DNA of 64,000 bases, counting the filler, from Jimgerdemannia flammicorona (lineage: Eukaryota): assembly GCA_003990765.1 (NCBI GenBank). It is 3 parts of 3 records of this genome, joined end to end, with 100 filler letters (N's around TTAATTAATTAA, not from the genome) between each part and the next. Parts side by side here need not be neighbours in the genome. Positions count along the whole stretch, not along the records: positions 1 to 21,511 come from RBNJ01001436.1; 2 more parts are not named here. One strand, 5' to 3'. The notes beneath the pieces are model-generated. The model was not told the origin of the DNA. It made no database searches and was given only the letters and a program-made list of their open reading frames with translations. Below, piece after piece: positions 1-60,100 of the stretch. The stretch's first letter is position 1; each line of letters begins with the position of its first letter. The position numbers were made by a program, and so were the translations under genes.

Positions 1-380
1 ATTTGAGCTTGAATCCGATGGTAGAAACTCTTGGGGGTTTCATTGGCAGCTTGGCTCATGTAGGTCAAAGCCTCCTGTGCTTCTTGTTGGCACTCGAATC
101 CATTGAACTGGGCACGGAGCCAGGCTTTGTGAATCATGTACCTTGCTACATGGTTCCTATCAGGTTGAAGGCCATCATTCAGTTCCTCTATATGGATTTC
201 TCCTCCGGCTTGCTTGGCTTGATTATACCTCTGTAGGGCTGGTCCTCTCAGGAGCGACTCCACAATTCTGAGTTTTCTCGCAGCATCCCATTGTTTGGTG
301 GCTGCTTGAACTTTGATTTCTCCAAAGAATTCCTCGATATCTTCGTTGTCTGCACCATGGAACTTCTGAAGGTAGCTCAT
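1..380 (-). CDS. gag: Gag capsid-like protein of element A (partial, open to window edge)
   Basis: Hand translation from ATG at 380: MSYLQKFHGADNEDIEEFFGEIKVQAATKQWDAARKLRIVESLLRGPA...ETPKSFYHRIQAQ. It resembles element B Gag (MATSLPTFAGYLEEDPREFL...ESPRAFFIRIQKR). Absent from the ORF track because there is no stop inside the window. Confidence 0.75.
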   Translation of the reverse strand, partial: MSYLQKFHGADNEDIEEFFGEIKVQAATKQWDAARKLRIVESLLRGPALQRYNQAKQAGGEIHIEELNDGLQPDRNHVARYMIHKAWLRAQFNGFECQQEAQEALTYMSQAANETPKSFYHRIQAQ

Positions 381-1262
381 GTCTGGCTCGTCTTCACTAT
401 CTGAGTATTGTTCAGGGGTAGGGGATCTGACAGATCCTTGGGGTGATGGGAAAGGTGGTGGTGCTAGTACTTGATGAACTAGTGGTGCTGGCAGAGGGTG
501 GTGTCTTGGTGAGGGTGAGGGTAATCTGGCTCTCCTAATTAATGCTGGGGTTGAAGTCCTGGGTAGTGGTGGAGATCTTCTGATTGACTGGTGATAGTGG
601 CGAGGTGTGAGTGACCAGGGTACTGAAGTTCGAGCAACTGATGGTGGGAGTGGACTAATATAACTGATAGTAAGTTCGTCTGCCCCTTGCTGTTGTGAAG
701 TAGTGAGGTCTGGTTCGTCTGGTTGCTGCTGTGGGTCAGTGTCGCTGTCTGAATAATAGTATAGGTTGAATTCGTCCCTTTGATGGTCTGATCCCCAATC
801 GTCGTCTTGCTCTAGTTGATATGGATGGTAGTCCTCTTCTCCTTCTGATGTTTCAAAGTATACCCAGTCTAGTGGAGTGACTCGAGTGACAACAGTAGTG
901 ATGTAGTTGCTTCTGTCTGAGTTCTTCCTATGGATAAGGGTCTGATACTCCTCGGGGATATCCTCTTCTTCTTCTTCTTGGCCTAAGTCTTGGATCTGAA
1001 GGGGCTTTTCTGGTTGCCCTCTGAGTTGTCTCCTTTCTCTTGAAGTCAAGCTGTAATCTGGGTCACTTCTTTCTTCTGATTCAGTTTTCTGGCTACTGGT
1101 GTTGAGTAGGGTTCTGGCTACTGTTCTGACAAGGGTGTGGGCTTTCTTTTCTGCTGAGGAGGGCTGTTGCTGCCCCTGGTTCAGTTGCTGACTTGGTCCT
1201 GCTAAGTTCTCCACTGTAGATTGCTGGGTTCTTGAGCCAAATGGTCAAGTCTTTTGAAAACT

Positions 1263-1280
1263 TTCCCAGTTGAGCCCCCA
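1263..1280 (-). promoter_or_regulatory. Primer-binding site of element A, tRNA-Pro-like
   Basis: TGGGGGCTCAACTGGGAA starts 3 nt after the LTR end. TGGGGGCTC is the start of the tRNA-Pro PBS (as in MLV). Near-identical PBS at 13409-13424. Confidence 0.8.
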
Positions 1281-1889
1281 AAATGTGACGTTGGTTATGT
1301 ATAATGAACTTCGACTGCATGGCTCAATGTATGCCACTTGGTGAAGCGTGCAGCGCAATGTATAACTGAGTGCATTGGTGACGTTCGCGGGTCGATGGTC
1401 ACGTGACAGGTCGTTCGATTCGTGCAGCAATTGATAATAGAATAGCGGGACTTCGATTGTTCAACGATGGTGGCTCAATTGTTTAGTGGATGAGGTCGTT
1501 TGATTGTGCTGGCTAAGTTTCCTGGTGGCGATTAACTTGGCGGCAAACTTGGCGGGCGATGGTCTTGACTTTAAGCGGTTCGTGGTGCAGTAGCTCGGAA
1601 AAACAGAGGTTGATGGCTCGCTCATCCGTCTTAACTTGTTAGGTTGAAGGGTTCCTGGCAGTCGTTCGAGTATCTTGGCAGGTCTTAGGCTGCGGTCTTG
1701 TTTGGCTGGGTATCCTTGGGTCCTTGATTTTCCGGGTCTTGAATCTCGAATGGCAGTCGAATTGCGCGGTCTGAATGGCGGTCTGGTCTTGAATCCTTTT
1801 CGTGGGTCTCGGGTCTCAAATGGCGGTCCGAATGGTGGCGGTTGTGGTCTTGAATCCTTGGGTTTCCGGGTCTTGAATGGCAGTGGTCG

Positions 1890-2628
1890 GTCTTTGGTGG
1901 TCTAGTGCGGCTTTCCTTAGCGGCGGGTCTTGAACGTTTTCTTTCTTTCCATGGCAAGAGAAAATTCTTTAACTCAAACTTCCGAGCGATCTATTGCTCT
2001 AGGTTATCTTGTTCTCAGAATTTATCCGGTCTCTTGGAGGCAGTGGTTATTTCTCAAAACCAATTGACTGACTTTGCGGGTGGTCCGTGGTCTTGAATCC
2101 TTTTCATGGTGGCGGTCTTGTAACATTTTCTTTCTTTCTGTGGCAAGAGAAAATTCTTTAACTCAAACCTCGAGCGATTGTTGCTCTAGTTATCTTGTTC
2201 TCAGAATTTATCCAGTCTCTTGGAGGCAGTGGTTATTTCTCAAAACCAGTTGACTGACTTTGCGGGCGGTCCGTGGTCTTGAATCCTTTTCGTGGTGGTG
2301 GTCTTGTAACGTTTTCTTTCTTTCCATGGCAAGAGAAAATTCTTTAACTCAAACCTTGAGCGATCGTTGCTCTAGTTATCTTGTTCTCAGAATTTATCCA
2401 GTCTCTTGGAGGCAGTGGTTATTTCTCAAAATCAGTTGACTAACTTTGCGGGTGGTCCATGGTCTTGAATCCTTTTTGTGGCGGCGGTCTTGTAACGTTT
2501 TCTTTCTTTCTGTGGCAAGAGAAAATTCTTTAACTCAAACCTTGAGCGATCGTTGCTCTAGTTATCTTGTTCTCAGAATTTATCCAGTCTCTTGGAGGCA
2601 GTGGTTATTTCTCAAAACCAGTTGACTG
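1890..2628. repeat. Four ~186-bp tandem repeats in the R/U5 part of LTR A
   Basis: GGCAAGAGAAAATTCTTTAACTCAAAC recurs at 1953, 2142, 2328 and 2514 (spacing 189/186/186). Confidence 0.95.
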
Positions 2629-2631
2629 AGG

Positions 2632-2667
2632 TTTATTCACTCTAAGAATATGGGTTATTTATACAAG
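2632..2667 (-). promoter_or_regulatory. LTR A TATA box and poly(A) signal
   Basis: Minus strand CTTGTATAAATA-N18-AATAAA. The same module occurs in the other LTRs. Confidence 0.7.
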
Positions 2668-3089
2668 TTTGCTAGCTATGAGGGGGCGCAACTAAGGCTA
2701 AGGTATACTACGTTGTGGCAAACTTCGCTATGCTATTGGCTTGCATGATGTGAAGGGCTGACTTGCTGACAAGATGCTGAAAACAGTTGCACTGGATAGC
2801 AACACTGGATTCGGTTGTGCTGGGTAGCAACACTGAATTCGGACTTGCTGACTTGCTGACACGGACGGATATGGATGCGGCGATTGTTGCCAGAAGCAGT
2901 TGTGGAGGGTAGCAATGCTGAAAACGGACTTGCCGACAAAATGCTGAAAACGGAGGTACTGGGTAGCAACGCTGGATTCGGATGAGCTGACATGATTGCT
3001 GATTGTTGCCAGAAACGGTTGTGGGGGGTGGCAATGCTGAAAACGGATGCTGACTAAAAGCTTGGTTCTCACGGCTGATAGGCGGTACT

Positions 3090-4076
3090 CTAGAGGGAAT
3101 AGTACCATTCATCCGCGGTGGGCAAATCTTGCTGGGTTGCGATTTCTTCTTCATCATATCTCTCCTCAAAGGGGGGAAGCGCCGGCCAAGAGGTGAGGGG
3201 GTAGAAAAGTGGCCAGTCATCTTCAACAACATTCTCCAACCCTTGAACAGCTTGAATGCGGACAGAGGACTGGTAGACTCTCTGTCGCTCTTCTTCTTCT
3301 TCTGAAGACTCGTTAGTTTCAGTGTCAGAGGGGGTTTCTTCAGGGGCAGGGTCTTGGAGTTCTTGGGTTTCCTCTTTAAAGACAGGAACTTCTTGGGCTT
3401 CCTCTTGATTCGGTTCCCAAATGATGAGGTGTGAATTGTGGCTGACAGGGTGGTGGGTGGTTGGAGTAGCTCCAACAGGTGTTTCTATAGTGATGGGCAG
3501 TCCTTCAAATATCTCCATGAGACTCATTAGGTGACCTTGATGGTTGTCTCGGAGTGGGGTGGTGTGAAAACCTGGCTGAGTAGGTTCAGTTTGTTGGCTT
3601 CCTATGGCGATGCAGTTGCTGCCAATAGCATTGGCTACTTCAGATTCTATCCAGTCAGCATCTTCAGTTGAAAGGTGGGAGAGGCTGCCAGCTGTTACTC
3701 CTTGTAAGTATGCTATAGCCCAGGGAATATGGTGGAAGATTTGATGGACACAGAGGGCTCTCTTGATTAGCCGACTGGTGGTTAACATTTCAGCAATGAG
3801 GTCTTCCTGGTCTCCTTCTTGAGTCTCATTGCGAAGGTGGTGTCCAATTTCATAGTCATGCCAGAGGGTCATTCGTTCGGTAGTGTCTTTGAGCTGTTGG
3901 GTCATTATATACCAGTAGTTGATGAAGTGTCCAAGGTCCTCAGTGTAGAAGTTCAAGTGTTCGGAATTATCTGGGCACCAGATGGCCTTCTTGATAGCTT
4001 CAAAGATCAGGGTCTTTGGGCCAGGCAAAGGGGTAGAGCGGCGGGAGGTCTGGTTGGTTCGGCGAATGGGAGGCAT
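3090..4076 (-). CDS. LTR(U3)-encoded accessory protein of unknown function, copy 1 (intact, 328 aa from MPPIRR; frame open from ATG 4250)
   Basis: Homologous by eye to 38229-39038 and 58712-59545 (WHDYEIGH, HQIFHHIPW, PLRDN, FEG motifs). All three align from an MP start. TATTTAA at 4132-4138 upstream. Confidence 0.8.
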   Translation of the reverse strand: MPPIRRTNQTSRRSTPLPGPKTLIFEAIKKAIWCPDNSEHLNFYTEDLGHFINYWYIMTQQLKDTTERMTLWHDYEIGHHLRNETQEGDQEDLIAEMLTTSRLIKRALCVHQIFHHIPWAIAYLQGVTAGSLSHLSTEDADWIESEVANAIGSNCIAIGSQQTEPTQPGFHTTPLRDNHQGHLMSLMEIFEGLPITIETPVGATPTTHHPVSHNSHLIIWEPNQEEAQEVPVFKEETQELQDPAPEETPSDTETNESSEEEEERQRVYQSSVRIQAVQGLENVVEDDWPLFYPLTSWPALPPFEERYDEEEIATQQDLPTADEWYYSL

Positions 4077-4446
4077 TGTGTGGTGGGTACTTGGTTCTTT
4101 GGTGCCGATCTCTGAGGCAAAGCAGGGTTCCTTAAATAACGTGGTCTTCATTTGGCTCGGATCTTCTTGTCTCCTTTTGGGATGATCACCTAATGGGTCA
4201 GGCTGTCTATTTGATTGTCCCGCCATTATGTCGTCTGATCTTGTGGTCATAGGGTACTCCGAATTTGGACAGGGTCAATTGTAGATGTCACAATAGATAT
4301 TCTCTAATATAATTTTATTTCTAAATATTATCAATTATTAAATTAATATTAATTAATAACTTAAATCTCTTATTCTTAACTTTATCAAGCTTGAAGGTCC
4401 TCATTCTGAAGAAAATATTATAGATACTTTTATTGGTTATACATAT

Positions 4447-5718
4447 TGTAATATGCCCTGCTCAATGGAGGCAAATTATAAGATTGGGGGTTGATGTAGT
4501 TTGGCTTGAGCCCCTAGTTACTTTGTCAAAAAGTAACAAAATGTTTTAAGATTCCTGAGGTCCTTGGTGTTTAGTGGTATAATAGTCAAGCTGGATATCT
4601 GTGAGTGGTTTCCTTATTGGGATGGTTCTCTAGGTGTAGTGGCGATTTGTGTCTTTCCTTCTTGAATCAACTGGGAATAACAGAATTTGTATGTAGTGTG
4701 ATGATCTCTTTGTGCATGACAGTCTGGCAATTTAGCGGTTCTCCTTATGCAATTTCTGCATGACGATCTTGTGTAGCACAATGATCTCCAGAAGTATGCA
4801 ATTTTTGATGAATAGCTTGATTTGGCACAGCTTCTCCTAAATCAGTGGGGTTCTTGAATGTTACTGGAAATTGTACTGGTGGTGGATAACTTGATAACTC
4901 AGGCTCACTGGGAACAATAGCTTGGGTGGTGCTGATTCTCTGGAAATGCAAATAACTTGAAAGATGGCAGATGACATGAATTCTCCTGAATTAGCGGACT
5001 TCTTGAAAATGGCAGTTTCAACTGGGAATTAACTCAGATTCTTGGAAAGGGTCTCTTGACAAAGTTGCATCAAAGACTGGCTTCATTTGTGTGGAGTTAC
5101 ATCATTAGACTGACTCTATTGTGAAGTTGCATCAAATAGACTGGCTTGTGGCAAGTTCCTTATAGCGGGCTCTCTGGGAATGTGATAACTTAGAAATGGC
5201 AGCTTATTCCTTAAGTGGCGGATTTCTCTTCAAAAGGTTGCAAAGTTCTTTCTCGAACTTAGACAGTAAACTTGAATTCTTCAGACTTATCTGGCAAGCA
5301 TACCAATCAATCTTTGTATTAGAAAGTGGACCGGAGTGGAAATAAGGGGACCAATTGCTCAATCTTTAGAGGCTTCTTTGGTTTGTACTTTAATTCAGAC
5401 TGAGGTTTATTCACTTTTGTCTCTGGGGTAATTTATACAAGTTGGTTACTACCTGGTTACTATGTGGCTAACTATAGATTTGCTACTTATGGTAAGTTGT
5501 GCAGGTTCAGTACAGGTGTGCAGGTTCTGTATAGATATACAGGTCCTATACAGGTATGCAGGTTATGTACAAATGTATCTTATCTGGTAGGTTGGCTATT
5601 TATACAATTTCTGCAGCAATGGTTGCTGGTTACTATTCTGTGTATTCACATCATTTGACTAATTATTCATGTCATTCAACTAAGGTATAATTTGGGTGAT
5701 ATGCCTCAGTTCGTCACA
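4447..5718 (-). repeat. 3' LTR of element B (1272 bp)
   Basis: TGTAAT...GTCACA; direct repeat of 13427-13859 plus 19653-20536; TATA/AATAAA module at 5406-5441. Confidence 0.93.
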
Positions 5719-37406: not shown

Positions 37407-39409
37407 TGTAATAACTCTCACTTCTATCCCTCTCTTATCCTTTGGATAATTAGGGAAGTGGACTATTACTTAGAGACTTAGTACACAATGTGTACCAAGA
37501 AGCCTTCAGTTTGAGGAAGCGCTCACTTTAAGTAGTTGTAGCGGCAGTGCCTTATCTTTCAATGGTCTTTCTCTGGTTTGCCTTATCTTTCAAAGGTCTT
37601 TCTCTTGTGCCCTATTTCGAGGGTCTTGTTCTTTGCTGTACACAGACTGAATTCGCCTTGGAATTCAGGTTCAATGGGTTTACTTAAGTCTTTGGGGATT
37701 TATATACCGGTCTCAGTTCTGGCAGAAGTTAGCTAGGCTTCTGGAGTTTAGTAAGAAACACTAGAGTCACTTAGATGTCATTACTAAGACTCAGGGGAAT
37801 GTGTGTGTGTGGGGGGGACTTGATTCTTGTATCAAGGACTGAACTAAAACTGCTTTATTTCGGATGGAAACTGAGGGGTATTTATACAAGTTGGTCCACG
37901 ATTTCTGACTAAGTATGAGTGACTAATTTGGTAACTATAATGAGGTTTGTGATCACAACCTTTGTCAGGTGGTTTTTGGCAAAAACAACTTTGTGATCAG
38001 GACCTCAATTACTAGGTAATGATCAGCAACTGTGGCAACTGTTGCTGTGGCGCCGATTGTTGGGGATAAGCTGGATATCATTTTCCGCATCGTTTCACAC
38101 TGTTCACATCGTTCGTTATTCATATGCCATGCTTGATCATATGATGACGTCATCGCCAGATCACATGATCATTCATCATTCATCGTTTGTTGTTCATTGC
38201 TCATTCATTCTATTACATCCTTTTCTCCTTAGAAATCAATGTCCTCGTTGATTGAGAAATTGAGAACCAGGGGAGAGAAAGGTGAGGAATCTTCCTCAGG
38301 GGCAGGGGGGGTGGTTGTTGCTGATGGCTCGCTGTCCAGGATGGAGAAGTCAATGAGGTCTGCAAATGGTTCTTGCACTGGGTTTTGTGCTGGTGTTGGG
38401 ATTCTCCATCTGATGTGGTTGGGGCCATCCAAGTAGGGTTCTTGATCTTCATGCCTGGGAATATCCATTCGAATAGGTGGTCCTTCAAAGAGGTCAGAGA
38501 GGCCTTGGAGCCATTGGTCAGAGTTGTCATTCAGGAGGGGGCTCCAGTAGGGTTCGCAGTCAGTAGATCTGGGGGTGATCCAGGAGTTGGCTTCTTGGGC
38601 TACCTTGATCTCTAGTTCATTGACCTCAGGGAAAGAGAGGTTCTGGAAGTCCTTCAGTTATACATAGTTGAGGTTGGAGATCATGAAAGGTATATGGCGT
38701 ATGATTTGATGGACCTTCTTGGCAAGTCTTTGCTCATGCCTGTCTAGGTGAGTCCAGTCAGAGACTTGGTCTGTGGGCAGGTCCTTTGCATGTTGGAGGA
38801 GTTGATGGCCAATCTCGTATTCATGCCAGATCTCTAGGCAGCTGGTGGCAAGGTAGGCTCTGTCAATGACTTCATGGCAGTTGAGGACATAGTGTCCTAG
38901 GTTCTGGCTGAAGAGGTTAAGGGCCTCTGAGCGGCGGTTCCTTCCTTGGATGGCAACCTGGATGTGTCCAAAGAGGCGGTCAACCTGGCTTGGGAGGGGC
39001 TGGCTACGGTGGGCAGTTTGGCGGTAGGTGGCAGGCATTCTTGTCTTGTCTTTTCTTTGTGAGGAGAGGGGGATGAGAGTTGCAGGGTATTCTTGCCTTG
39101 GGTATTTTATACTTGTTCACCCATCTGATGTGATCTTCTTTTGGTCATGCTTCCTGGCAAAATGTATGACCTGTGCTGTAAGCGGAGCATGTGCTGGTTA
39201 CATGAGGAAATCCTGATTTCAAAGATCTCATCACCTGTCTGTGGTTACACAGGGTTAACAGGTCTTGGTCCACTTTTTTTTTGTCTGGTTGGCATATTTG
39301 CGAGGACTGGCCATCCTTGTCTAGGGCAAGGGCTCCCATTGTCATGGCTGGGGGTTAGAACCTCTTGGAAATAGACTTTCTTGTAATCTGAGGCAATTCT
39401 TTAGTAACA
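37407..39409 (-). repeat. LTR-like unit D carrying the U3 ORF (probably the 3' LTR of the adjacent chromovirus; right boundary uncertain, ~39202, ~39248 or 39409)
   Basis: TGTAAT begins exactly where element E pol is interrupted. TATA/AATAAA module at 37854-37890. No clear PPT or TSD found. Confidence 0.55.
38229..39038 (-). pseudogene. LTR(U3) accessory protein copy 2 (269 codons, one internal TAA at 38658-38660)
   Basis: Single frame MPATYRQ...WHEYEIGHQL...KKVHQIIRHIPF...PLLNDN...LFEGPPI...FADLIDFS...LNFSINEDIDF; TATAAAA at 39105-39111. Confidence 0.82.
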
Positions 39410-39681: not shown

Positions 39682-42600
39682 TTAGAGCTGTAATTCCTTC
39701 CTTTGCTGGGGGGTGAGTATTTCCATGTAGTCCTGGAGGGCTTCGCATGCATTCTTCAGAACTTTTTCTTTTTCCCAGGTGGCATCATGGGTGGGGTAAC
39801 CCTTCCACTTGATCAGGAAAAAGCACTTGACTGCTTTGGGATATTTGCAGACCTTGTGGTCAAGTACTTCCTCAATTTCGAATTCCTCATGATCATTGAT
39901 CCTAATTGGGGGTGGTGGTGGAACTGTATGCTCAGGGAATGGGTTCTCATGGTAGTCCACCAATTGGCTAATATGGAATACTGGGTGTACTTGGATATTG
40001 TGGGGGAGTTGCAACTTGTAGTTGACTTCGCTGATTTTTTCCATGATCTTGTATGGTCCAATTCTTCTAGCATGGAGTTTCTTGGCTGGTTGTTGTGCCA
40101 GGGTGTCTGGGTGGAGGTGGTCTGTTCTAAGCATGACCTTGTCACTGATATTGTAGGAGGCTTCTCTTTGTTTCAAGTTCGCATACTTGGTCTGGTAGTC
40201 TTGTGCTTCTATGAGAGCATCTCTTGTCATTCGCATAAGGTCAGAAATGGTCTTGGCCAGATCTTGGGCTGCTGGGACTGCTGATTTCACAGTAGTACTT
40301 AGGGTCCTTGGGTGTTGACCATGGTTCAGAAAGAATGGAGTCTTCTTTGTAGAGGTTTGCTGACTGTTATTGTAGGCAAACTCGGCATGGGCTAGGTACT
40401 TGTCCCAATCATTTTACTTGTAACAGCAGAAGATACTAAGCATCTGTTTGAGAGTCCTGTTTGTTTGCTCGGTTTGACTGTCAGTCTGAGGGTGGTAGGC
40501 AGTAGAGAACTTCAGCTTGGTTCCATGGAGAGAGAAAAATTCCTTCCAGAAGTTGCTTATGAACTTGGCATCTCGGTCAGATACAATGGTGCTAGGTATG
40601 CCATGTAGCCTGAATACTTGGTTGAGAAAGATCTTGGCAATTTCTGGTGCTGTAGCAGTGGTCTTGGTGGGTGCAAAATGGGCTTGTTTACTTAGGTGGT
40701 CCATGAATACCACAATGGCATCCCATCCTGCCTTGGTCTTGGGGAGTTGGACAATGAAGTCCATCGCAATCTGGTCCCAATTGTGACTTGGGATAGGCAA
40801 GGGTTGCAGGAGTCCTGCTGGTAGCTTGTTATCACTTTTGAACCTTTGGCACATCTCGCATGAGGCCACAAAGTCTTTGATATCCTTGGTCATCTTTGGC
40901 CAGTAGAACTCTCTTGAGAGGAAGTTGTAGGTCTTTTCAAAACCAAAGTGTCCTGCTGCAGGGGTATCATGGAGTTCCTGCATGATTTTGAGTCACAGAG
41001 TATCATTGTTGAGTACAACCACTCTGTCATGGTCCCTGTAGATAAGTCCATCATGGTAGGTGAATCTCTTGGCCATTTGTCTCATGGGTTCTGGAACCTC
41101 GGCCTCTGGGTCTTGGCAGAATTGAAGGAAGTTCATCAGGGGGCTGTCTTGCTGATAGCCATCCTTGATCATTTGGGTAAGATCTCCAATTACTTCGACC
41201 ATAAAGACAAGTTCATCTTCCATGTACCTGGAGAAACCATCAGCCACACGGTTGGTTTTACCTGGGATATACTTGATTTCCATATCAAAGTTGGTAATGA
41301 TTTCCATCCAGCGGGCTTGTCTGTGGGTCAGCATGGGCTGTGTGTGAATATACCATAGTGCATGGTGATCAGTGTAGGCCACAAATGGCTGTCCTAGGAG
41401 GATGTGGCACCATTCCTAGAGTACAGTGACAATAGCCAGGAGTTCCTTCTCATGGGTGGTATACTGGGTCTCAGCTGGCTTGAGCTTTTGGGAAAGGTAG
41501 GCCACTGGGTGGTCTTCTTGGCTGAGCACTGCTCCAATAGCAATGTCAGAGGCATCTGTGGTCAGAGTGAAGAGTCTGGTAGGGTCAGGTGTAATTAGCA
41601 CTGGGGCCTCAGTAAGGAGTCTCTTGAGATGGTCCATAGCCAGAGTGCATTCGGGGGTCCATTCATCTTTGATATTCACTCCTTTACAGGCCAGGCTGGT
41701 CAATGGGGCTGCAATAGCAGAGTATCCCTGGATAAACCTTCAGTAATAACCGGCAATACCCAGAAAGTGCTGGAGTAGCTTGAGGATAGTAGGGATAGGG
41801 ATATCCTTAAGGGCTGATACTTTTCGGGAGTCCACATTGATACCTTCAGCAGAGATGATGTGTCCCAGGTATTCAATCTGGTCTTGGTAGAACTTGCATT
41901 TGCTCATCTTGGCATAGAGCTGGTGTTCTTGTAGGAGGGTCAGTACTTGTCTAAGGTGGGTGTAGTGTAGCTCTACTGTCTCGCTGTAGATTAGTATATC
42001 ATCAATATACACAAGAACACAGATGTTGAGGAGTGGTCCAAAGATGTCATTCATCAGATACTGGAATGTTACTGGTATATTGGTCAATCCAAAAGGCATG
42101 ACTCAGAACTGGAGTGTCCAAACCGTGTTCGAAAAGCTGTCTTCTCAATGTCCTTCTCATCAATGAGAATCTGGTGGTAGCCATTTTGCAAATTCAGTAG
42201 AGAAAAGGTCTTGGCCTTGAAGATTTGGTGTAGCAACTCATCAATCCTGGGCAAGGCATACCAATTCTTAATAGTGATCTTGTTGAGGGCTCTGTAGTCA
42301 ATACACATTCGCAGAGAGCCATCCTTCTTCTTGACAAATAGAATTGGGGCTCCAAATGGAGAGCAGCTGGGTTCAATGTATCCTTGGGCCAGTAGTTTGG
42401 TCAACTCATCCTTGAGGGTCTTGAGCTCAGGTTGGGCCAGTTGATAGATACTCTTATATAGCGGTTCAGATCCTGGGATAAGATCAATTACATGTTGGAT
42501 TTGGTGCTTGGGTGGGAGTCCTTGAGGGTCTTGGAATACATCTTGGAATTCTTCAAACAGTTCTTGAGCTTCTGTTGGAATTGGGCTACTTGTAGCTTCA

Positions 42601-43120
42601 GTGACTTCTTGTACAGTACAGATGAAGTAGGTGTTTCCCTTTTTTCGAGAGAGTCTCTTCATTTGAATGGCAGAGATGATTTCAATTCCTTAGTGGTTGG
42701 TGCCTTCCTGTGGTGTCAGGGTGATCTTTCTGCCTTTGTGGGTCAGGTTAACCTCGTTGGTTCTCCCGTTGATGTCTGGGTTGTGCTGGGTCAACCAGGC
42801 TTTTCCTAAGATAATGTCTTGTCCTGAGAGGTCTACAATGCTGAAATCTAACTTCTCTTGATATTTGCCAATCTTGAGCAAAAGGTCTTTGCAGATCTTA
42901 GTCAATGGTGCAGTTTTTCCATCACCAAAGGTAACACTTCTTTTCTCAGCAGTGGGTCTGCTTTGGGCTCCAATCCTCTTGGTGGTCTTAGTGCTGATGT
43001 AGTTTCCAGTAGCACCACTATCAAGCAAGACATTGACATTTTGTCTGTGGACTTGGCCTGTGAACTTGATGCAACTATCCTCCTTCTTGATGGTATTGAG
43101 CTCTTCATCCTCATTGTTGT
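39682..43120 (-). mobile_element. pol: Element D pol: chromovirus-type Gypsy (PR-RT-RH-IN-chromodomain), few lesions, 5' part lost in gap
   Basis: [55 protein letters not shown], chromodomain EEFEIEEVLDH...FLIKWKGYPTHDATWE. Confidence 0.93.
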
Positions 43121-43220
43121 NNNNNNNNNNNNNNNNNNNNNNNNNNNNNNNNNNNNNNNNNNNNTTAATTAATTAANNNNNNNNNNNNNNNNNNNNNNNN
43201 NNNNNNNNNNNNNNNNNNNN
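43121..43220. other. Assembly gap with artificial linker
   Basis: N44-TTAATTAATTAA-N44. Confidence 0.97.
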
Positions 43221-43935: not shown

Positions 43936-44339
43936 TGTAACAGTTTTAGTTTCTAAATGAGGAAGTGACTAGTTCTGGTAGTTCTAAGTAACTCAAAGAG
44001 ATACTTAAGGATTCAAGTATTCTCAAAGGATTTCTGAGAGAAAATATTCTGAGGCTTTATTCGTGAGAACAAAGGGGATATTTATACAAGATCTGAAAGA
44101 AGGATCCAGAAGGATCTGAGAAATCAAAGGAAAATACCAAGAGGAAAGTTCTTGGCAAAGATGACAAATGATGACAAATAAAGTTCTACAAGTTTCCAGA
44201 ACATTCAGTAACTAGCTAAATAAGTACTAGAGGATGCTCAGTGCCAAGAAAGGATTTCTAAGCATTCAGAAAGTACTGGAAGGTTATAGAATATTGAAGA
44301 AAGACAAAGAAAAGAAATAAACTATGCTAAAATATTCCA
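43936..44339 (-). repeat. 3' LTR of element C
   Basis: TGTAAC...TTCCA, next to the PPT; direct repeat of 53378-53781. Confidence 0.93.
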
Positions 44340-47300
44340 TCTTCCCCTCCTTAAGAATCAACATCCTCATTGAATTCTCAAAGTTACACATAATAAATAA
44401 TAAGACTAAAAGAAACTTCAAATTAAATATATTGACTCATTGGCAAGGATTGGCTGTCCTTGTATAAGGTAAGGGCCAAAGTATCATCTTGATCAGATGA
44501 GAACTGGTTTGAACCTCGTTGGTTGCAGAATTTATAGGGTTTTCCTATATCTCTTGTTTCTGATGCTGTATCCCTTAGAGAGCTCCAATGCATAATGTAC
44601 CTGATCAGCACAGTAGGTCATCTACTATCCAAGGAGAGAACCTCACAGGCAGTCAATGAGTTCCTTTTTGCTTGAACTCTTGGATGAGGTCTTGGGAGTT
44701 CTTAAGATTGGTGGTAGGTTCCCAGGTGGCATCATATTCAGGGTAACCCATTCACTTGACTAGATATTCTATGTAATAGTATTGGACTCACTTGTCTAAG
44801 ATTTTCTCAACTTCATACTCGATGTGATCTTCAACTATAACTAGTGCTGATGGTGTCAAAATTCAGCCAGGGTATGGGGGGGACTGGTTCCAGGTCTTGA
44901 GTTATGATATATGGAATACTGGGTATATACACATGGTTGTTGGCAGGTTGAGATGATAAGACTAGGTGGAGACTCACTTAGTGATTTCAAAGGGTCCAAG
45001 GTACTTAGGCTGGAATTTGGCTGACTGGTAGTTGACTTGAGATTGAGCCTTATCAGCTTTGAGTAGAACTATATCACCAATGTTGTATATGATATCTCAC
45101 CACTTCTTATCTGCATACTTAGCTTGATGTTGCTGAGTCTTTTGTAGGTTCATAGTGGCAATCTTGAGAAGGGAATCCATTTTGTCAATAAGGTTCTGGG
45201 CTGTGGGGACTTGTGTGTGACTGGATTGCTGGAATGGAACTAGGCTTGCAGGGGTCTCAGGGTTTTGACTGTGAAGTAGCTGGAATGGGGAAAGGCCAGT
45301 TGATGATTGGTTGGCATTATTGTAGATGAACTCGGCATAGGTCAGATAGTGGTCCCAATCATTTTGCTCATAAGACATGTAGTTTCTGAGCATTTGTTCA
45401 AGTGTTCTGTTCATTCCCTTAGTCTGTTCATCAGTTTGAGGGTAGAAGACAGTGGATATAGCAATTTGGGTTCCAAGGGTCTTGAAGAGTGCTTGCCAGA
45501 AGTGGCTTGTGAACTTGGGGTCACGGTCACTGATAATTACTCAGGGAAGTCCATAATAGCGGAAGACAGTCTTGAAGAAGATTCTTGCAATTTCTGGGGT
45601 AGTGGCATTGGTTGTGGTTGGCTTGGCGATTGTGATCTTAGTGAGATGGTCCACAAATACAACAATAGCATCATAGTCTGTTTTGGTTTATAGGAGTTGT
45701 ACAATGAAGTCCATTGTAACTTGTTCGAACTTCTTGGTTGGAATTTGCAAGAGTTGTAGAAGACCAGCAGGTGCTTGGTTGCTTGATTTGTTTCTTTGAC
45801 AAAGATTGCAGCTTTGGACATACTCTTTGATTTCCTTGAGCATGTTTGGCCAGTAGTAGTCTCGTTGGATATTCTTGATGGTCTTCTCAGTTCTAAGGTG
45901 ACCAGCTAGTGGAGAATCATGATATTCATAAAGAATCTTATACTATAGTTCAGGGTGACTGAAATATATACTTTGTCTTAATAGTATATGAGGTTGTCCT
46001 TGATGGTGTACTTTTTCTTGAATTCCTTGGGTTTCCTTTGTAGAACCAGAGAGTCTTGTTCATATGCCTTCTTGATCTAATTGAGGAATTTGGGTGCCAT
46101 GGTGACTTATAAAATTGTAGCAAGGTTAGGTCTTCTTGAAAGTATATCTAGTATAACCAGAGTTTTGCTGGGCTTGTAGATGATGTTTGGGGTAAAGGTC
46201 TGAAGTAGTTGACTCCACTTGGCTTGTTGGCAAGAAAGAGTTGGTTGAGTGTTGATGTACTGAAGGGACCTGTGATCAGTGATCATGTCGAACTCAACTC
46301 TTTCTAGATAGTGTCGCTAAGTCTTGAGGGCATGCATGATTACAAGGAGTTCCTTTTTATGAGTAGCCAGCTTTTGTTTCGCTGGGGACAATTTTCTTGA
46401 CTCAAAGGCAATAGGTTGGTATCCTTGACCATCATCTTGAGAAATGACTGCACCAATGGCAAAGTTAGATGCATCTATAGTGACTGTGAACTTCAAGTTT
46501 GGGTCCATGTTTCTAAGGACAGATACATGGGTCAGGCAGTTCTTGAGTTCTTGAAAAGCTTGTTGACAGAAAGCATCCCAGATGTAGGGGACATAGAGGT
46601 CAGAGTTGGGTTCCTTTTGCAGGAGATTTGTCAAAGATTCTGCAATGCCAGAGAAGTTCTTGACAAATTGACAGTAGTATCCAGCCAGACTAAGGAAGGA
46701 CCTGAGTTCAGTGAGGTTTGCTAGTACAGGCCACTGTTCAATGACTTGTATTTTTCTTGGGTCTACTTGAATTCTTTATGTGTCCAAGGTATTTGACTTG
46801 ATTCTTGAAAAATTCACATTTCTTGAGCTTTGCGTAGAGCTTGTTCATGCGAAGGATCTTGAGGACTTATTCAATGTACTTGAGGTATTCTTCTTCAGTG
46901 CTACTGAAGATCAAGATGTCATCAATGTATATAAGTACAAAGATATAGAGCTGATCCTTGAAGATAGTTTGCATGAGATCTTAAAAGGTTGCTGGCACAT
47001 TGGTGAGACCAAAGGCCATGACTAGAAATTCATAGAGTCTGAAGAGTGTCATGAAGGCAGTCTTGGATATGTCTTCTGGCTTGATTCGAATTTGGTGATA
47101 CTCAGAGGTGAGATCAATCTTGGTGAAGTACTTTGCATTCTTGAGAGCATCAAAGATTTGATCTATGAGTAGTAGTGGATAATGGTTCTTGACTGTGATC
47201 TTGTTGAGTACTTGGTAGTCTATGTACATTCACAGAGTATCATCCTTTTTCTTGACAAATAGGACTGGGGAGCCAAAGGGTGACTTGCTTGGCTGAATGG

Positions 47301-47893
47301 CTCCTCACTTGAGTTTCTTCTTGACTGCTTCAATTTCGAGTGGAGATATGTAGTACATTTTCTTCTTAGGTATAGCTGTATCAGGTACCAACTTGATTTC
47401 ATGGTCATGGTCTCTTGAAGGTGGTAGACCAGGTAGTTTATCTGGGAAGACATCCTTGTACTTTTTCAGCAGTAACTTGATGCTTTCACTAATTGATAGC
47501 TTCTTGTCTTCTTTCTTTGGTCAGATTAGTACCACAAAGGCACAGGTAGCTTTCTTGAGGGCCTTCTTGAACTGAATTGCTGAAAGGGTAGCAATTGGGG
47601 TTCTTATCTGAGTCTTGTCTGGCTTGATAGTAATGTTGGCTCCATCCGGGATCAAGGTGACTTCATTCTTGGTCCAATCAATCTGAGGGTTGTGTCATGT
47701 AAGTCAGGGTTTGCCTAGAATCAGATCATGGTCTCTTAGTAGTGCTACCTTGAAATCTAAATGTTCCCAGTACTTCTGGATTTTGAGGGGAAGTGTAGCA
47801 GCAATTGAGTTAATTGGTAAGGTGGTGCCATCTGTAGTGACAACTCCACCATTCTTGCCAGCTGGTTTGGTGAGAATCTTGAGCTTGTCAATG

Positions 47894-47898
<5 letters not shown>

Positions 47899-47931
<33 letters not shown>

Positions 47932-50900
47932 TTACTTTGGACTGCCCTTTATTACCACCATCTATAATAATAATAATACAATATCACCCCATCCCCTCAA
48001 CCAATACTCCTCAGACCTATTCCTCTCCCCTAGATACCTCCCTGCCTGAGGACAACTCAGTCACCCACCACCCGAATCCTCCCATCACTTTTCTGGGAGA
48101 TACACTGTATCAAATCCCTGCAACTCCCCCTACCTGGCCCCCACCCCTACTACCAGCCATTCAAAATATCCAGTAACAACCATTCCCAATAGGCTACCTT
48201 ATCCCTAACTCCAACCTGCCTACTCTCCTCAAATACATGCACTCAATGCCCAGCTATCCCAACCCATATGGCCAGAGCCCAGCTGAGGGTCAGCCATTCA
48301 TCCCCAACCCCACTGACCAGCCTTCAGCAGAGCTCTCCCCATCTCCCCCCTACCCCTCTCTCCAGGGCTCACAGCCCTAACCAGTCCATGATATGTCCCC
48401 AGAACACCCCCAAAACATCACACTTGGCAAGCCAATGTTCAGGTATTTGAACTACTCCTCCCTCCTGATCAATATCGAAACATTCTTTACACTCAAAAGT
48501 GTCACTATCCACCAAGTACCCAGACCAATAGTTCAACATCACATTCCACCATAGGACTTGCCACCATATCACCCAGAACTTGGGGGGCAGCCACTGCATC
48601 ACCCACTTGCTCCAAAGCCAGAGCCCATTCCAGTTCCACTCCTCACCAATCCCAACCCTCTGCCAGGCTTTAGGCCAAAGATTGCCACCCAAGCCCCACA
48701 GATACTCCATACCCTCACCAAGCTGAAAGTCCTCCACCAAGACACCACCCAGCAGTAGTCTGTCCCACTGCTATATCCACGGTCCCCAATCTTCCTCTCC
48801 TTCACCACCCTGCCACCAAAGTCCAATTCTCTTAGCTCTATCCACCACCACCCACCAAAAGCCCTTATATCACATCCTCCTGCTCCCATCCATGGCCACC
48901 ATCACAAGCAGGTCACCAGAGTCTCCACAAGGGGAATACCCGACCTCCCACACCCTCTGCATGAGTGGCATCCATTCCCAGCCCCTCAGCTCACTCACCC
49001 TCCACAGCCACCAGGCCCTCAAGCAATGAAGCTGCTTGGTGAAGTCCACTAAACCCAGCCCACCTCTTTCCACTAGTAGTGTGAGTATATCCCAACCAAT
49101 CTGACTTTGCTGGCCTCCCCAGATCCATGATCTCACCATCTTCAATAGCCCCCTGACCACCCAAGCTGGGAAGTCCAGATGATAACCAACATACTACAGC
49201 TTTGGCAGTCAATATATATTCAGCACCATCACCCTTCCTGCCAGGGACATATACCATCCCCCCCACTGCAGGAGTACATTTCCCCACTCTAGAAGTTGCC
49301 GATCCCACCATGCCCAGAGAAGAAGTGACCCATATACTGAGAAGTAGATCCCCAAGTAATGCACCAGCTCGCCTACTGGCACCACTGTCCCAATTATGTT
49401 GCCACCAATGATTCTACCACCTAGCACCAAAGTCTCGCATTTGTGCCAATTGAGTTTAGCACCAGAACCCCTCTCATACCATTCAACAGCCTGTCAGAAT
49501 TCCCCAACATCCATTAATGAGCCCAGTCCAACCACCATGTCATCTGCAAAGGCCCCCACCTTCTAGTTTATCTCTAGAATGTCCAAACCCCTAATGCAAT
49601 ACTAGATCCTATCCAGTAAGGACTCCAGAGAGAGGGCATATAAGATGGGTGACAAAGGGTCCCCTTGTGGCACCCTATGACCAAGTAGGAATGCCATACC
49701 TCTGTGGCCATTGATAACCAATGCAGTCTGACTGTTCTCCAAAAGGCCAATCAACGACCTGCAGACCCCCAGGGGAATGCCAATCTGCTTCAACACTCCC
49801 TCTGGCCAAATTCTCCATACTCTATCATATGTCTTCTCCTGATCCAAGAAGACCAACTGGTCATCCACCCCTGCAGCCTGGGCACCTTCAATCACACTAT
49901 GTACTCATACTGTCCTATCATGGATCAACTAGCCACTGACAAACCCACATTGCTCCACACTAAGCACTTATTGAGCAATTCCTTATAGCCTCATCACCAA
50001 TATCTTCATCACCAGTTTGCAGTCCATGTCGAGTAGTATGATTGGCTGCCAGTTCTTCCAATCTTCCTGCCTCCCCTTATTCTTGTAGAGCAAGGAGACC
50101 AGCCCTAGGTGCTGGCCCCCAATCTAAGTTCCAGACCAAAGAACCTCCCCACACATATCTGCCATTTCCTCCAATACCATGCCCACCCCAGCCATCTTCT
50201 TCCAAAAATCCCAGGGGAGTCCATCCTCTCCCAGAGCTGTCCCCTTACTGGTTGTGACCAAGACCCTGCAAATTTCCTCTCCGCTCACTGGGTCCCCCAA
50301 AGTCCCCAGGCCCATTGCAGGTTCTGGATGCCAATCCCCCAGCTGCCTTTCAATGTCCAAAGCATCCTCCCCTCCTTTCTCTTCACTCCATAAATCCTCC
50401 CAACAGGTTCGCAGCAATCCTAGAATTGCCAGAGTCCCCACCACCAGCTCCCCATCCACATTCAGGACTCCCTCCCATTACTGCTTCATTTGTCATGCTT
50501 GAAGCATCTGTAATAGAAACCTAGTAGGCCTCTCCCCCTCCTCAAGCCCTTGCCACTGCAGCCATGCCACCATCTCCTGTAGCCTCACCTCCTCCTCCCT
50601 ATGTAGCACTTCTTTAAGCTCCACAACTTCCTTCTGAATCCTCACAATATGCCAGTCAGCCACCTCCCAATCTTCTAGCATGCCCACCCATCACTCCATG
50701 AGCACTGCCAAATGCTGTGATGCCCATAACACCCTCTGCTGTCATTGGGCACACCTTCCTTTCCCTGCCTCCCTCCAGTACCTCTAAGCATTTGCCTTCA
50801 GCCTCCTCCAGTAGTCCACAATCACCAGGCCCCAGTTCTGCCACCTCCCAATGTTCCCAATAACCTCCTTTTCCCAGTCCACCCACAAACCCCCATCCTT

Positions 50901-51732
50901 CAACAGAGAAGAATTTAGTCACCAATGTCCAGGCCCATCCTCATTACCCCCAAACCTCTCCCCTCCTAGCAGCCCCCAGTGATCAGACCATGGACACCAA
51001 ACCACCTCCAGCATTGTCCAGACATCTACTCTCCAGCAATCCGCCATCACAATCCAGTCAATTCTAGAGTCCAGCCCTGCTGCCCAATGCATATAAATCT
51101 GACGATCATCCCAAAACTATCTCCTGGAATCCACCAGAGAACTCAACCTCTCCAACTCTAACCAGTCATCCAATCCACCACTCCTACTCCACATTCCTCT
51201 CTCTCTATCTGTCCTGTCCATCTCTTTATTCTGCACCATGTTGAAGTCACCCTCTAAACAGTCCAACCCAACCTCTCCTAAGACACCAGCCTCCTTTAAC
51301 CTGCAAATCCAATCCACTTGCTCCCCTCTCTCAGCTGGGCAATAAATCAACCCAACTGTCAGCGGGCTCTGTCCAGACCTCTTCCACACTCCCTATACCA
51401 ACTGAGACTCCCAATGTCCAATGTCCCCAATATCTCCCATCTCTTTCTGAATGAGGATACCCACCCTCCCCATCCATACCACAACCCCCCCCCATTTCTT
51501 AGTCCAATCCTGTAAGTCTACATCTACCTCATAACAGATATCCTGCAGTAAGAAGAGATCTGCATCCAGTCCCTTTAGCTATCCAAATATGTACTTCCTC
51601 CTTGTTGCCCCCTGTAACCCATTTATGTTCAAAGAAAAAATCCTGGTAGTATTGTTCATATTGAAAAATATTTACATTTGAGATCTCATCCTAGTACTCT
51701 ATGCCCATCTTATCCCCAGCCAGATCCAAGCA
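47899..51732 (-). mobile_element. 5'-truncated L1/Tx1-like LINE copy 4 inserted in the protease of element C
   Basis: T-tract 47897-47929 = poly(A); ORF2 remnants; starts in the last codons of ORF1; TSD core ATGAGGTT at 47891-47898 and 51736-51743. Confidence 0.92.
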
Positions 51733-51863
51733 TTGATGAGGTTCTTGTTAATGAAGTTCCCAACAGCTCCACTATCTATGAGAATATCTAGCTCTTGTCC
51801 CTTGACTAGGCCTTTGAAAATGAGCATTGAATTGGCTCAGTTTTCAGCTATGCTTACAACTTT

Positions 51864-52270
51864 ATCAGTGCTGCCAAAGCCTTTCTAATCTCACTTGGTT
51901 GAAGACAGCTTGGTGACCTCTTTGATGACTGGTAGGGTGGCTCACTCCAGAATGAGCTGTGCAATTCTGTCACCTTCATTGACAGTGTATGGTTGGTTCT
52001 TGTGGTTGACTAGCAGGACTTGCATTTTACCTCAAAAGTCAGGGTCAATGACTCCAGCACCAACATCCAATGAGTGCTTGAAACTGAGGCTAGATCTTGG
52101 TACAATTCTTGCATAATGTTCCTTGGGAATTTCGACTGAAAGGCCAGTTAGAATGAGCCTTCTTTCATGTGCTAGAATAGTGACTTGTTATACTGCTTGA
52201 AGGTCCAAACCAATGGCTCCTTCTGACTGTGCTTGAGGGATCTGGGCCTTGGGGTTGACTCACATGAAAT
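51864..52270 (-). pseudogene. dUTPase domain of element C (between Gag zinc knuckle and protease)
   Basis: Hand translation: GAIGLDL...HYARIVPRSSLSFK...GAGVIDPDF*G...GDRIAQL...KGFGSTD, followed by ILIDSGAVGNF. Confidence 0.88.
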
Positions 52271-53377
52271 TGAGTACAACTTCGTATTCAACTGATTGAC
52301 CTTGAGTGTCTTTGGACAGGACCAGAATCCTCTTTGGTTCAGCAGTTTTCTTGGGACATTTAGTTGCAATGTGACCAGGCTGACAGCAAAAGAAGCAGGC
52401 TCCAGTCTTCTTAAGACACTCCTTTTCCTTGGGTGTAAACTTGTCTTTCTTATTCTTGTCAATGGTGTCTAGGTCCATGGGGGCAGGTCCAACAGTTCTA
52501 ACTTTGGGTTCCTCCCTTCTGTGGTTGTTGTTGTTGTTGAAAGGTGGTCTCTTCTGTTCAAAGCAGTGACCATAGGTGATGATATCAAACCTATCAGCAA
52601 TTTTCATTGCTGTATCTAGGTCCTTGGGTTCTTCTAGTTCAACATGAACTCAGGTTTGACCTTTCAGGCCTTGGATATACTTGTCGACCTTCTCGTCTTC
52701 AGTTACATGTGGTAATTTTAGCAGAATTGACAGGAATTGTACATTGTATAATTGCACAGACTTGAGTTGTTTGACATTTGCCAGACAGTCTCATGCAGCC
52801 TTGGTGCTGTTGACTGGTTTGAATTGGCCTTGGATGGCATCAGAGAATTCATTCCAGGTTCTGATCTGGCCAGCAAATCTGGTATTCTGGATATGGTTTC
52901 GCCACCAGATTGCAGTATTCTCTTGGAGGAGTGTGGCAGTAAATTGGATGAGTGTTGCTTCTTCCAAATTGGTCAGTTCTTCATATTGCTCTAATTGGAA
53001 AAGCCAGGCATTGGTAGACAGTCCTCCTCTTTGACCATCAAAAGTGTCAGGCTTCTGAGACTTGATAGTGACTGCTGTCGGATGTATTGATGTCAGTAGA
53101 GATGTAGAGGTATGAGTGGAGGCCTTGCTTTCCTTTCTTTCTATACATTCTTAAAGTTGAGCAATCTGAGCTAATGCAGTCTGCAAAAGACTCTTGATGG
53201 TCCCATTTGACTGAATAGGGTTTTGCTGTTCCTCTTCTTCTTGCTGATTGTATGAGGTATTGCCTGGACCATAGGTACTGTATGAAGGGTTCCACCCATT
53301 GTCCTCTATAGTATTGTGACTGATATCTTAAGAGGTGTCTTGATAAGGCTAGGTATAACTTAACCACTGCTATCAAG

Positions 53378-53781
53378 TATAACAGTTCTAGTTCCTAAAT
53401 GAGAAAGCAACTAGTTCTGGTAGTTCTAAGTAACTCGAAGAGATACTTAAGAATTCAAGTGTTCTCGAAGGATTTCTGAGAGAAAATATTCTGAGGCTTT
53501 ATTCATGAGAACAAAGGGGATATTTATACAAGATCTGAAAGAAGGATCTGGAAGGATCTGAGAAATCAAAGGAAAATACCAAGAGGAAAGTTCTCAGCAA
53601 AGATGACAAATAATGACAAATAAAGTTCTACAAGTTTCCAGGACATTCAGTGACTAGCTAAATAAGTACTAGAGGATACTTGGTACCAAGAAAGGATTTA
53701 TAAGCATTCGGAAAGTACTGGAAGATCATAGAATATTGAAGAAAGACAAAGAAAAGAAATAAACTATGCTAAAATGTTATA
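53378..53781 (-). repeat. 5' LTR of element C
   Basis: Matches 43936-44339; termini mutated to TATAAC / GTTATA. Confidence 0.92.
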
Positions 53782-59787: not shown

Positions 59788-60100
59788 TCTTCCTCCTGAA
59801 TAAGGATCTTCCTGAGCGTCCTTATTCATTGGTCCAGTCCTGAAAAATTTGCTGATCCCATAACCTCTGGAAAGGGGTCGAAAACTAGTGTTTATGGGCT
59901 GGTGTCTTCTCTTTGTATTTTGATGTGATGGTGAAGGGTCGCTCCCTTCATATAGAGCAAGGGCCTGATTCTGATCTTGACCAATCAGTTGATGGTTCGA
60001 ACTCCTCTGACTGTGAAAGTCTCATGGATGAGTAGTTGTCAGTGCTGTATCCCTTAGAGAATAGTTCAGACAGATAGCCTGCTGGTCATAGGACATGCTG

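Follow-up and report, generated by a model that had tools for sequence, protein, structure and literature searches.

Ty3/Gypsy retrotransposons are usually taken to consist of gag and pol only, with non-coding long terminal repeats (LTRs). Retroviral genes that lie in or overlap the U3 part of the LTR are sag of mouse mammary tumour virus (MMTV) and nef of human and simian immunodeficiency viruses (HIV/SIV), and the foamy virus Tas (Bel1) gene is a 3'-terminal regulatory gene, with an internal promoter located in env and a product with an acidic C-terminal part. In plant Ty3/Gypsy elements, sense additional open reading frames (aORFs) between pol and the 3' LTR have been described as ENV-like (PMC7264820). 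C. elegans Cer1 produces, from a spliced mRNA, a nuclear accessory protein, CERV, which is needed for the element's RNA expression and acts in the export of genomic RNA (PMC10309623), and Boty-like Gypsy elements of Botrytis cinerea carry an extra antisense gene, brtn (PMC8365987, describing Zhao et al. 2011). Here we analyse a 64-kb stretch of Jimgerdemannia flammicorona DNA (assembly GCA_003990765.1; three parts of three records joined end to end, hereafter the window), which holds three homologous minus-strand frames in three different Ty3/Gypsy elements, A, D, and G. On balance, we read the three frames as one accessory gene that stands in sense at the extreme 3' end of a related, probably fungal, group of Ty3/Gypsy elements and that belongs to U3 in A and G.

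A reading of the window from sequence alone had picked out the three frames as one intact copy and two copies with one stop each, and both the coordinates (Table 1) and pairwise BLASTP agree with it. Copies 1 and 2 share 32.2% identity over 202 amino acids (aa; E 1.3e-21), copies 1 and 3 share 27.6% over 181 aa (E 5e-14), and copies 2 and 3 share 38.2% over 228 aa (E 1.5e-48). Frames 39116->38658 and 38657->38229 (arrows give the reading direction) make up copy 2 as a single frame split by one TAA, and frames 59602->59333 and 59332->58712 make up copy 3, split by one TAG; a homologue, P0002, has Trp at the position of this TAG. The open frame of copy 1 spans 4250->3090 and encodes 386 aa. Because full-length homologues start with MPP or MPA in the family alignment, and because the upstream extension has a 1-nt insertion at 4150 in the one covering contig in each of three soil-metagenome runs, the Met-Pro at 4076 is taken as the conserved start of copy 1. 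The motifs listed in the sequence-only reading are seen in the protein alignments, namely the Met-Pro start, W-H-[DE]-Y-E-I-G-H, V-H-Q-I-F-R-H-x-P-W, LS....E..VA, L.DN, F-E/Q-G, I.W, and an acidic tail. A tblastn search of the whole window with the three proteins finds no fourth copy, the next best match having an E value of 0.55.

To describe the hosts, 136 open frames of the window were scanned against Pfam, and the window was compared with itself, with and without collapsed transitions. The window is a nest of retroelements, the majority of which lie on the minus strand. The hosts differ, as had been proposed: D has an integrase with a chromodomain, and G has a pol with dUTPase. All three copies lie on the gag/pol strand, i.e., in sense, unlike antisense extra genes, and the gene is indeed, as proposed, associated with the 3' LTR in elements of different Ty3/Gypsy kinds.

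In chromovirus D, the gene is very probably an internal open reading frame (ORF) between pol and the 3' LTR. At the junction (38234-38206), the last codons, GAC ATT GAT TTC TAA, run into GGAGAAAAGGA, which is followed by TGTAATAGAATG. The LTR start TGTAATAG (38217) and the LTR end TATTACA (37407) form a terminal inverted repeat of 7 nt; the LTR end (37407) is also where a fragment of another element starts, and the LTR carries the usual module (TGTATAAATA, 37888-37879; AATAAA, 37859-37854). The metagenome locus L001, which holds an intact frame of D type, has a matching layout, with TTC TAA and GGAGGGAGGAT before TGTAATAAG. Element X, a D-like chromovirus, has the polypurine tract AAGGAGGGGAAGA immediately before TGGAATATTTTAGC. 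Since the junction after the D stop is homologous to the X junction, which is fixed by two LTRs and a target duplication, the D gene is assigned to the internal region. The sequence-only reading had placed the gene between the LTR start and the TATA/AATAAA module in all three elements. This fails for D, where polypurine tract and LTR start follow the stop and where the gene is the internal 3' ORF that the same reading had named as contrary to it; the placement probably stands for A and G.

X keeps TGTGTAAC together with the last seven codons and the stop (AAT GAG GAT GTT GAT TCT TAA) before its tract. Because these codons are kept and only ~300 nt separate the chromodomain from the tract, X is regarded as a D-type element without the gene body. 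It is split by a LINE-like insert (47907-51735). The tail of the D LTR (37771->37411) matches 43936->43630 with a score of 184 (shuffles, 104 +/- 9), and 37809->37765 of the D LTR matches 53825->53781 on the other flank of X. Since the D LTR tail thus recurs on both flanks, X sits in a D-like LTR. Comparison of the D U3 with 53779-54300 gives nothing above shuffles except in the last 45 bp.

A D LTR start at TGTGTCATC (~39506) was also considered and was dropped, as it has no purine tract and no terminal match. D is flanked, with X inside, by a direct repeat: a 1.2-kb protease-dUTPase segment from a G-like element stands on either side (36203-37407 and 54124-55322), the two segments being 72% identical as written and 90% identical in purine/pyrimidine code. 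The 5' half of D is decayed by transitions and the 3' half is not, and only ~450 bp stand in place of gag. D resembles a recombinant between one old copy and one young one.

In element A, the termini of the candidate LTR make it quite probable that the gene lies in U3. TGTGAC (4292) and GTCACA (1289-1284) are the sole such hexamers in 4350->1250; the AT-rich flank of A ends at 4293, and the primer binding site stands three bases past the other end. Upstream of 4292 there is no integrase or other internal sequence, only AT-rich DNA. In addition, four soil contigs of one run (X1) stop at GTGAC just upstream of 4242, as expected for the edge of a repeated unit. An LTR start at a purine run followed by TGTTAC (2139) was rejected, as it lies inside the tandem repeat and downstream of the TATA box. 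Soil-contig joints of 1282 to 4447/4460 were set aside as well; they represent LTR ends of Element-1 type fused to the shared primer binding site, with only 20 letters on the short side, and are uninformative on A.

The 186-bp units in the A LTR are 94-96% alike, and length variants of the repeat occur in soil-metagenome contigs. The C-terminal 130 aa of A gag resemble the gag of Element 1, a dUTPase-bearing Gypsy element upstream of A (tblastn, 29% identity over 137 aa, E 1.8e-9, to 12883-12500). The N-terminal extension of A gag, of ~280 aa, is acidic and proline-rich and has neither a Pfam match nor similarity to Element 1 gag.

In element G, the gene probably lies in U3 as well, as judged from a junction upstream of the gene (59797-59775), where AGGAGGAAGA is followed by TGTAACGGTGACC at a distance matching X. 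The preceding stretch after pol (60062->59915) is homologous to the internal stretch after pol of X, with a score of 75.5 (shuffles, 25 +/- 3). The candidate LTR contains the module (TGTATAAATA, 58505-58496; AATAAA, 58487-58482), and at its end, CGTAACA (58276), sequence of normal composition meets the decayed plus-strand element G'. Because the composition changes sharply at this border, G is considered the younger insertion. Between the gene and the LTR TATA box, neither A nor G has a purine run followed by TG. A G LTR start at TGTTACAC (58703) was discarded, since the site is one of four 35-nt repeat copies and has no purine tract. G' (54102-58270, plus strand) and G (58276-63998, minus strand) lie tail to tail, and the G LTR end is no more than ~25 nt from the expected polypurine tract of G'.

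The DNA around the gene had been called largely unalike. This holds for the direct repeats downstream of the gene, which are lineage-specific: three units in A (Table 1), four 35-nt units in G (58579-58705), and short TGATCA-containing repeat pairs in D. It does not hold for the ~215-240 nt upstream of each ATG, which are alignable among A, D, G, and L001 and begin with TGT(A/G)AC in A, D, and G, nor for the common TGTATAAATA/AATAAA module. After the repeats comes TTGTATAAATA, with AATAAA 16-27 nt on, an arrangement common to Element 1 and to an LTR near 34570. Within the upstream block, A, D, and G have a TATA-like box, and L001 has TATAAAAG ~75 nt upstream of its start codon. TATAAA occurs ten times on the sense strand in 22.3 kb of these elements (0.45 per kb), and ~0.02 occurrences are expected per 40-nt span. 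Because TATAAA is rare on this strand and yet D and G have it 66-87 nt ahead of their ATG, the upstream box is interpreted as the gene's own putative promoter.

Table 1. Features of the window, with coordinates counted along the whole stretch.
Feature	Position	Strand	Remarks
Accessory gene copy 1	3090..4076	-	intact, 328 aa from conserved Met-Pro start; in element A
Accessory gene copy 2	38229..39038	-	one premature TAA at 38660-38658; in chromovirus D
Accessory gene copy 3	58712..59545	-	one premature TAG at 59335-59333; in dUTPase Gypsy G
In-frame extension upstream of copy 1	4077..4250	-	58 codons; coding not conserved
Candidate 5' LTR of A, 3009 bp	1284..4292	-	TGTGAC...GTCACA; holds copy 1
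TATA-like box of A, TTATTTAAGG	4130..4139	-	TATTTAA 56-62 nt upstream of copy 1 start
Direct repeats of A	2757..3047	-	three 47-63-nt units between copy 1 and LTR TATA box
LTR module of A	2632..2665	-	TGTATAAATA 2665-2656, AATAAA 2637-2632
186-bp tandem repeat of A, ~3.9 units	1911..2629	-	R/U5 of A LTR
Primer binding site of A, TGGGGGCTCAACTGGGA	1264..1280	-	three T past LTR end; same in Element 1 (13426-13407)
gag of A	3..1244	-	runs off window
pol of D	39685..43172	-	protease, reverse transcriptase, RNase H, integrase with SH3 and chromodomain (Pfam)
5' end of upstream block in D, TGTAACCACAG	39239..39249	-	aligned to A/G LTR starts; no polypurine tract before it
TATAAAAT box of D	39104..39111	-	66-73 nt upstream of copy 2 start
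Polypurine tract of D, TAAGGAGAAAAGGA	38218..38231	-	first three bases are copy 2 stop; homologous to X tract 44352-44340
3' LTR of D, 811 bp	37407..38217	-	TGTAATA...TATTACA; without gene
Element X, D-like chromovirus	43936..53781	-	two 404-bp LTRs (44339->43936, 53781->53378), GTTAC target duplication
pol of G	60100..63998	-	protease, dUTPase, reverse transcriptase, RNase H, integrase (Pfam)
Polypurine tract of G, AGGAGGAAGA	59788..59797	-	abuts TGTAACGG, upstream of gene
Candidate 3' LTR of G, 1512 bp	58276..59787	-	TGTAACG...CGTAACA; holds copy 3
TATAAAA box of G	59626..59632	-	81-87 nt upstream of copy 3 start
G', decayed copy of G	54102 to ~58270	+	self-comparison
Element 1, dUTPase-bearing Gypsy	internal part 5719-13426; LTRs 5718->4447 and 20536->13427		Pfam, self-comparison

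Relatives of the protein occur outside the window. A word-seeded search found a sole protein, P0001, which is 79% identical to copy 1 and has the same MP start. A profile search of 1.84 billion cluster representatives gave 15 matches at E<=1e-3, six at E<=1e-10, and four at E<=1e-30. One of them, P0013 (846 aa, repetitive, E 5e-4), probably matched by chance and was excluded from alignments; P0004, P0007, and P0015, which are fragments of A-type copies, were left out of the wide family alignment. Clusters were checked for ten of the 15 matches; they comprise 1-6 members each, which come from metagenome sources and lie on contigs 619-19,434 bp long, and the members are unnamed or named 'hypothetical protein'. 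Neither the copies nor the relatives have a Pfam family. The earlier proposal of a previously unnamed protein family is borne out. Distant members retain the MPP/MPA start and the Y-x-I-G-H, H-Q-[IV]-F-R-H-x-P, and L-S/T....E blocks. L001 (1535 bp, with a frame of 291 aa) is the single related locus recovered from the metagenome scan; of two scans of viral contigs for related loci, one gave two 15-aa chance matches and the other none. A search for longer or fused forms of the protein found none.

Copy 2 and the L001 frame have 57% protein identity. Over 267 codons, the proportions of nonsynonymous and synonymous differences (pN and pS) are 0.25 and 0.64, and the ratio of nonsynonymous to synonymous substitution rates (dN/dS) is ~0.22, falling to ~0.16 in the first 200 codons; the synonymous rate is near saturation, so these ratios are rough. 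In line with the proposal that the conservation of the protein reflects selection, the values indicate that the accessory gene evolves under purifying selection. In addition, a 792-nt soil contig over 3121-3912 has 36 substitutions and no gaps. The sequencing runs that share most sequence words are soil metagenomes, with 5-13% of the words, and no RNA run is among those listed; the contigs, of 98-792 nt, are too short to span an LTR. Coverage of the gene in one further run, which may be RNA, was set aside.

The gene had also been suspected of being swapped between lineages. Between D and G, the gene protein has 38% identity, in line with 33-44% for reverse transcriptase, RNase H, and integrase, and the best DNA alignments are alike too (260/425 for the gene, 372/630 for pol). 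Because gene and pol are equally conserved between D and G, the suspicion is not supported, and the data point to long co-inheritance under constraint with no sign of a recent swap.

The protein has ~270-330 aa and starts with Met-Pro and a short basic stretch. The N-terminal 30 residues are weakly basic, with a net charge of +1 to +6 in six of seven close members, and the last 35% of the protein is strongly acidic, with a net charge of -14 to -26 in all seven. Conserved F-x-D-L-I-x-F and P-x-x-L-N-F motifs stand amid the acidic residues of the tail. The structure prediction and Foldseek search suggested in the sequence-only reading give a confident all-helical domain and no recognisable known fold. 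An AlphaFold model from 19 sequences (mean predicted local distance difference test score (pLDDT) 67.8) shows a helical domain of ~130 residues (residues ~20-150, pLDDT 80-95), including a 40-residue helix, followed by a beta region of lower confidence and, from residue ~233, a disordered tail (pLDDT <50). The maximum Kyte-Doolittle 19-residue mean is 0.56-1.07 in seven of seven members, and the model has no membrane helix; as there is no membrane-type segment, the protein is not ENV-like. No Pfam family reached the cut-off for the three copies or the 19 family members, no relative was found among PDB sequences, and the ESM Atlas gave no match. Foldseek found nothing at E<=0.001 (best E 0.66 against PDB and 0.13 against BFVD), and the best score in a wide structure search with VIA-align was Z 3.2.

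These features fit a scheme in which the mRNA of the gene, of ~1.1-1.5 kb, would start from its own promoter and end at the LTR poly(A) signal. Genomic transcripts would probably start at or past AATAAA, given its closeness to the TATA box, and AATAAA would serve only at the 3' LTR and on the accessory-gene transcripts. Whether the LTR carries the gene would depend on the position of the plus-strand primer site. With an LTR start upstream of the gene, as deduced for A and G, the gene would be part of U3 and be copied into both LTRs; in D, the polypurine tract right after the stop would leave the gene as one internal ORF that separates pol from the 3' LTR.

As to function, the leading candidate is a nuclear regulator of the element's own expression, i.e., a transactivator with an acidic tail, although this proposal is tentative and more probably wrong than right. 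The tail would activate transcription, and the helical domain would recognise the lineage-specific U3 repeats upstream of the LTR TATA box. Second in likelihood is a factor for RNA export or RNA binding, and a silencing antagonist is possible. It is more doubtful that every LTR of the A and G lineages, including solo LTRs, is a self-contained gene with a promoter, a frame of 270-330 aa, and a poly(A) signal, nested ahead of the main promoter and encoding a Tas-like or other nuclear regulator with positive feedback. If this were true, A and G would be 'complex' Metaviridae with an LTR-borne regulatory gene, and D would have the same gene across the primer site.

Several points weigh against one sense accessory gene that is internal in D and part of U3 in A and G. 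The LTR membership in A and G is deduced from termini, polypurine tract, and primer binding site, and the window contains no second LTR of A or G. A TGTAAC block stands upstream of the D gene too and is not an LTR start there, so the motif alone is no proof for A and G. In G, the terminal inverted repeat has one mismatch in seven positions, and a second purine run followed by TG lies inside the gene (59491), so that the LTR could start 306 nt downstream; with 59491 as the primer site, most of the gene would still lie in U3. Two of the three copies have a premature stop, and X shows that the gene can be lost from an element with matching LTRs. No structure or sequence match backs any function, and the transactivator idea draws on composition and position only. 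Some of these points suit an alternative that we consider unlikely, in which the gene is an internal 3' ORF in all three elements (pol, ORF, polypurine tract, and LTR, in this order) and never part of the LTR. Copy 1 would then be what remains of the 3' end of a truncated element upstream, which shares its LTR with A, and the purine run upstream of the gene in G would not be a primer site. D has precisely this layout, with the TGTAAC block before its gene, and none of the three genes recurs as a duplicate within the window. Against this, A and G have no purine run with TG after it in the stretch that separates the gene from the LTR TATA box; TGTTACAC after the G stop is a repeat copy; only AT-rich DNA, with no integrase or internal sequence, lies upstream of 4292 in A; and the TGTGAC/GTCACA pair of A is unique and stands exactly at the flank and the primer binding site.

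The reverse, that U3 holds the gene in all three elements, is improbable. In D, this would put the LTR start at TGTAACC (39249) or at a site upstream of it and assign the purines after the stop to a 3' untranslated region. In its favour, A, D, G, and L001 have homologous upstream blocks with TGT(A/G)AC, and there is a 5-nt pairing of TGTAA (39249) with TTACA at the LTR end. Yet no purine tract adjoins 39249, and the tract after the stop and the 7-nt terminal inverted repeat align with the X junction, which has two LTRs and a target duplication. The piece of D-like 5' LTR by X measures at most ~320 bp before G' sequence begins at 54102, which leaves no room for the gene, although truncation there is possible. 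It is very improbable that the frames are no functional element gene at all but a transduced host fragment, or decaying frames kept open by composition. The stops in two of three copies, the tiny size of the family in public data, and the lack of a known domain would fit; against this, the frames sit at one and the same position in three distinct elements, between which pol protein identity is no more than 33-44%, dN/dS is ~0.2, the start motif, TATA box, and C-terminal motifs are conserved, and intact copies exist in other samples.

The remainder of the window illustrates how these elements were nested and decayed. Element 1 was inserted into the AT-rich DNA upstream of 4292 with an ATAT duplication, and its 5' LTR is interrupted by a LINE-like insert (13861-19636) with a duplication of ~17 bp. 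Differences within LTR pairs of the window are nearly all transitions; the two LTRs of X, for instance, are 94% identical as written vs 99.75% in purine/pyrimidine code. Several blocks have 24-32% G+C. Transition decay together with AT-rich blocks is the pattern that repeat-induced point mutation leaves in fungi.

The short U3 of Element 1 (5380-5718) contains two TGTATAAAT boxes (5606 and ~5441), ~165 nt apart, with ACCTG-type repeats between them, and has no ORF; it could be a remnant of a two-promoter LTR of the A kind. On the plus strand, an LTR end at 34400-34830 has the TTGTATAAATA/AATAAA module as in A and the terminus TGTTACA, followed by a primer binding site, TGGTGCCCATTAGCTGG, unlike that of A. 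The upstream part of this LTR is heavily decayed, and any former presence of the gene is unreadable there. Alignment of the candidate LTRs of A and G to this LTR, near 34570, gives scores within the shuffle range.

At least three long copies of the LINE-like element are present (13864-19518, plus strand; 21614-27260, minus strand; 47911-51732, minus strand), one of them inside the 5' LTR of Element 1, and there are fragments at 27262-32793. The element has an endonuclease/exonuclease/phosphatase domain and a reverse transcriptase, and its GC skew of 0.4-0.5 is an extreme strand asymmetry. Four runs of exactly 44 N (21512-21555, 21568-21611, 43121-43164, and 43177-43220), two of which adjoin a LINE-like copy and two of which lie at the border of D gag and protease, give the impression of masking rather than of gaps in the assembly. 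A stretch of 205 bp (21105-21309), within the AT-rich DNA that flanks Element 1 upstream, matches its own reverse complement, 93% in purine/pyrimidine code.

The locus offers a conserved, selected gene of unmatched fold, with a putative promoter of its own, where the internal region borders the 3' LTR. This gene has seemingly been drawn into the LTR in two lineages, the sole difference being the place of the plus-strand primer site, which makes the locus a model for the origin of U3 genes such as those of some retroviruses. If the protein regulates its own element, fungal-type retrotransposons would offer here a rare example of an accessory regulator. The protein is already present in gene-predictor output as 'hypothetical', and LTR annotation pipelines that assume non-coding LTRs would misplace the boundaries of such elements.

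As for described systems, full-text literature searches turned up no fungal Gypsy element with a described gene that is LTR-borne or lies in sense at the 3' end. The brtn gene is likewise an additional gene in a fungal Gypsy element, but as described it is set apart by its antisense orientation. The gene resembles the plant aORFs in being a sense ORF past pol that occurs in more than one family member, and the D layout is exactly of this kind. It differs from them in having no hydrophobic segment or Pfam match and in residing in elements that look fungal; moreover, in A and G it apparently lies past the LTR start, and an LTR-borne aORF goes unmentioned in the aORF passages of PMC7264820. CERV provides a precedent for regulators in Ty3/Gypsy-type elements, although the position of its gene differs. 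With MMTV sag and nef, the gene would share, in the layout deduced for A and G, coding sequence past the polypurine tract that is copied into both LTRs. Pfam, Foldseek, and VIA-align, however, gave no sequence or fold match to them, the gene here has its own TATA box, and its hosts are Metaviridae-type retrotransposons without env. By analogy, the gene may come close to foamy virus Tas in being a 3' gene with a putative second promoter, an acidic C-terminal part, and a proposed feedback on the LTR, but no homology was found, and the promoter of Tas is situated in env rather than in U3. The accessory gene represents a new protein family; its position is of a known type in D and is probably unusual and retrovirus-like in A and G.

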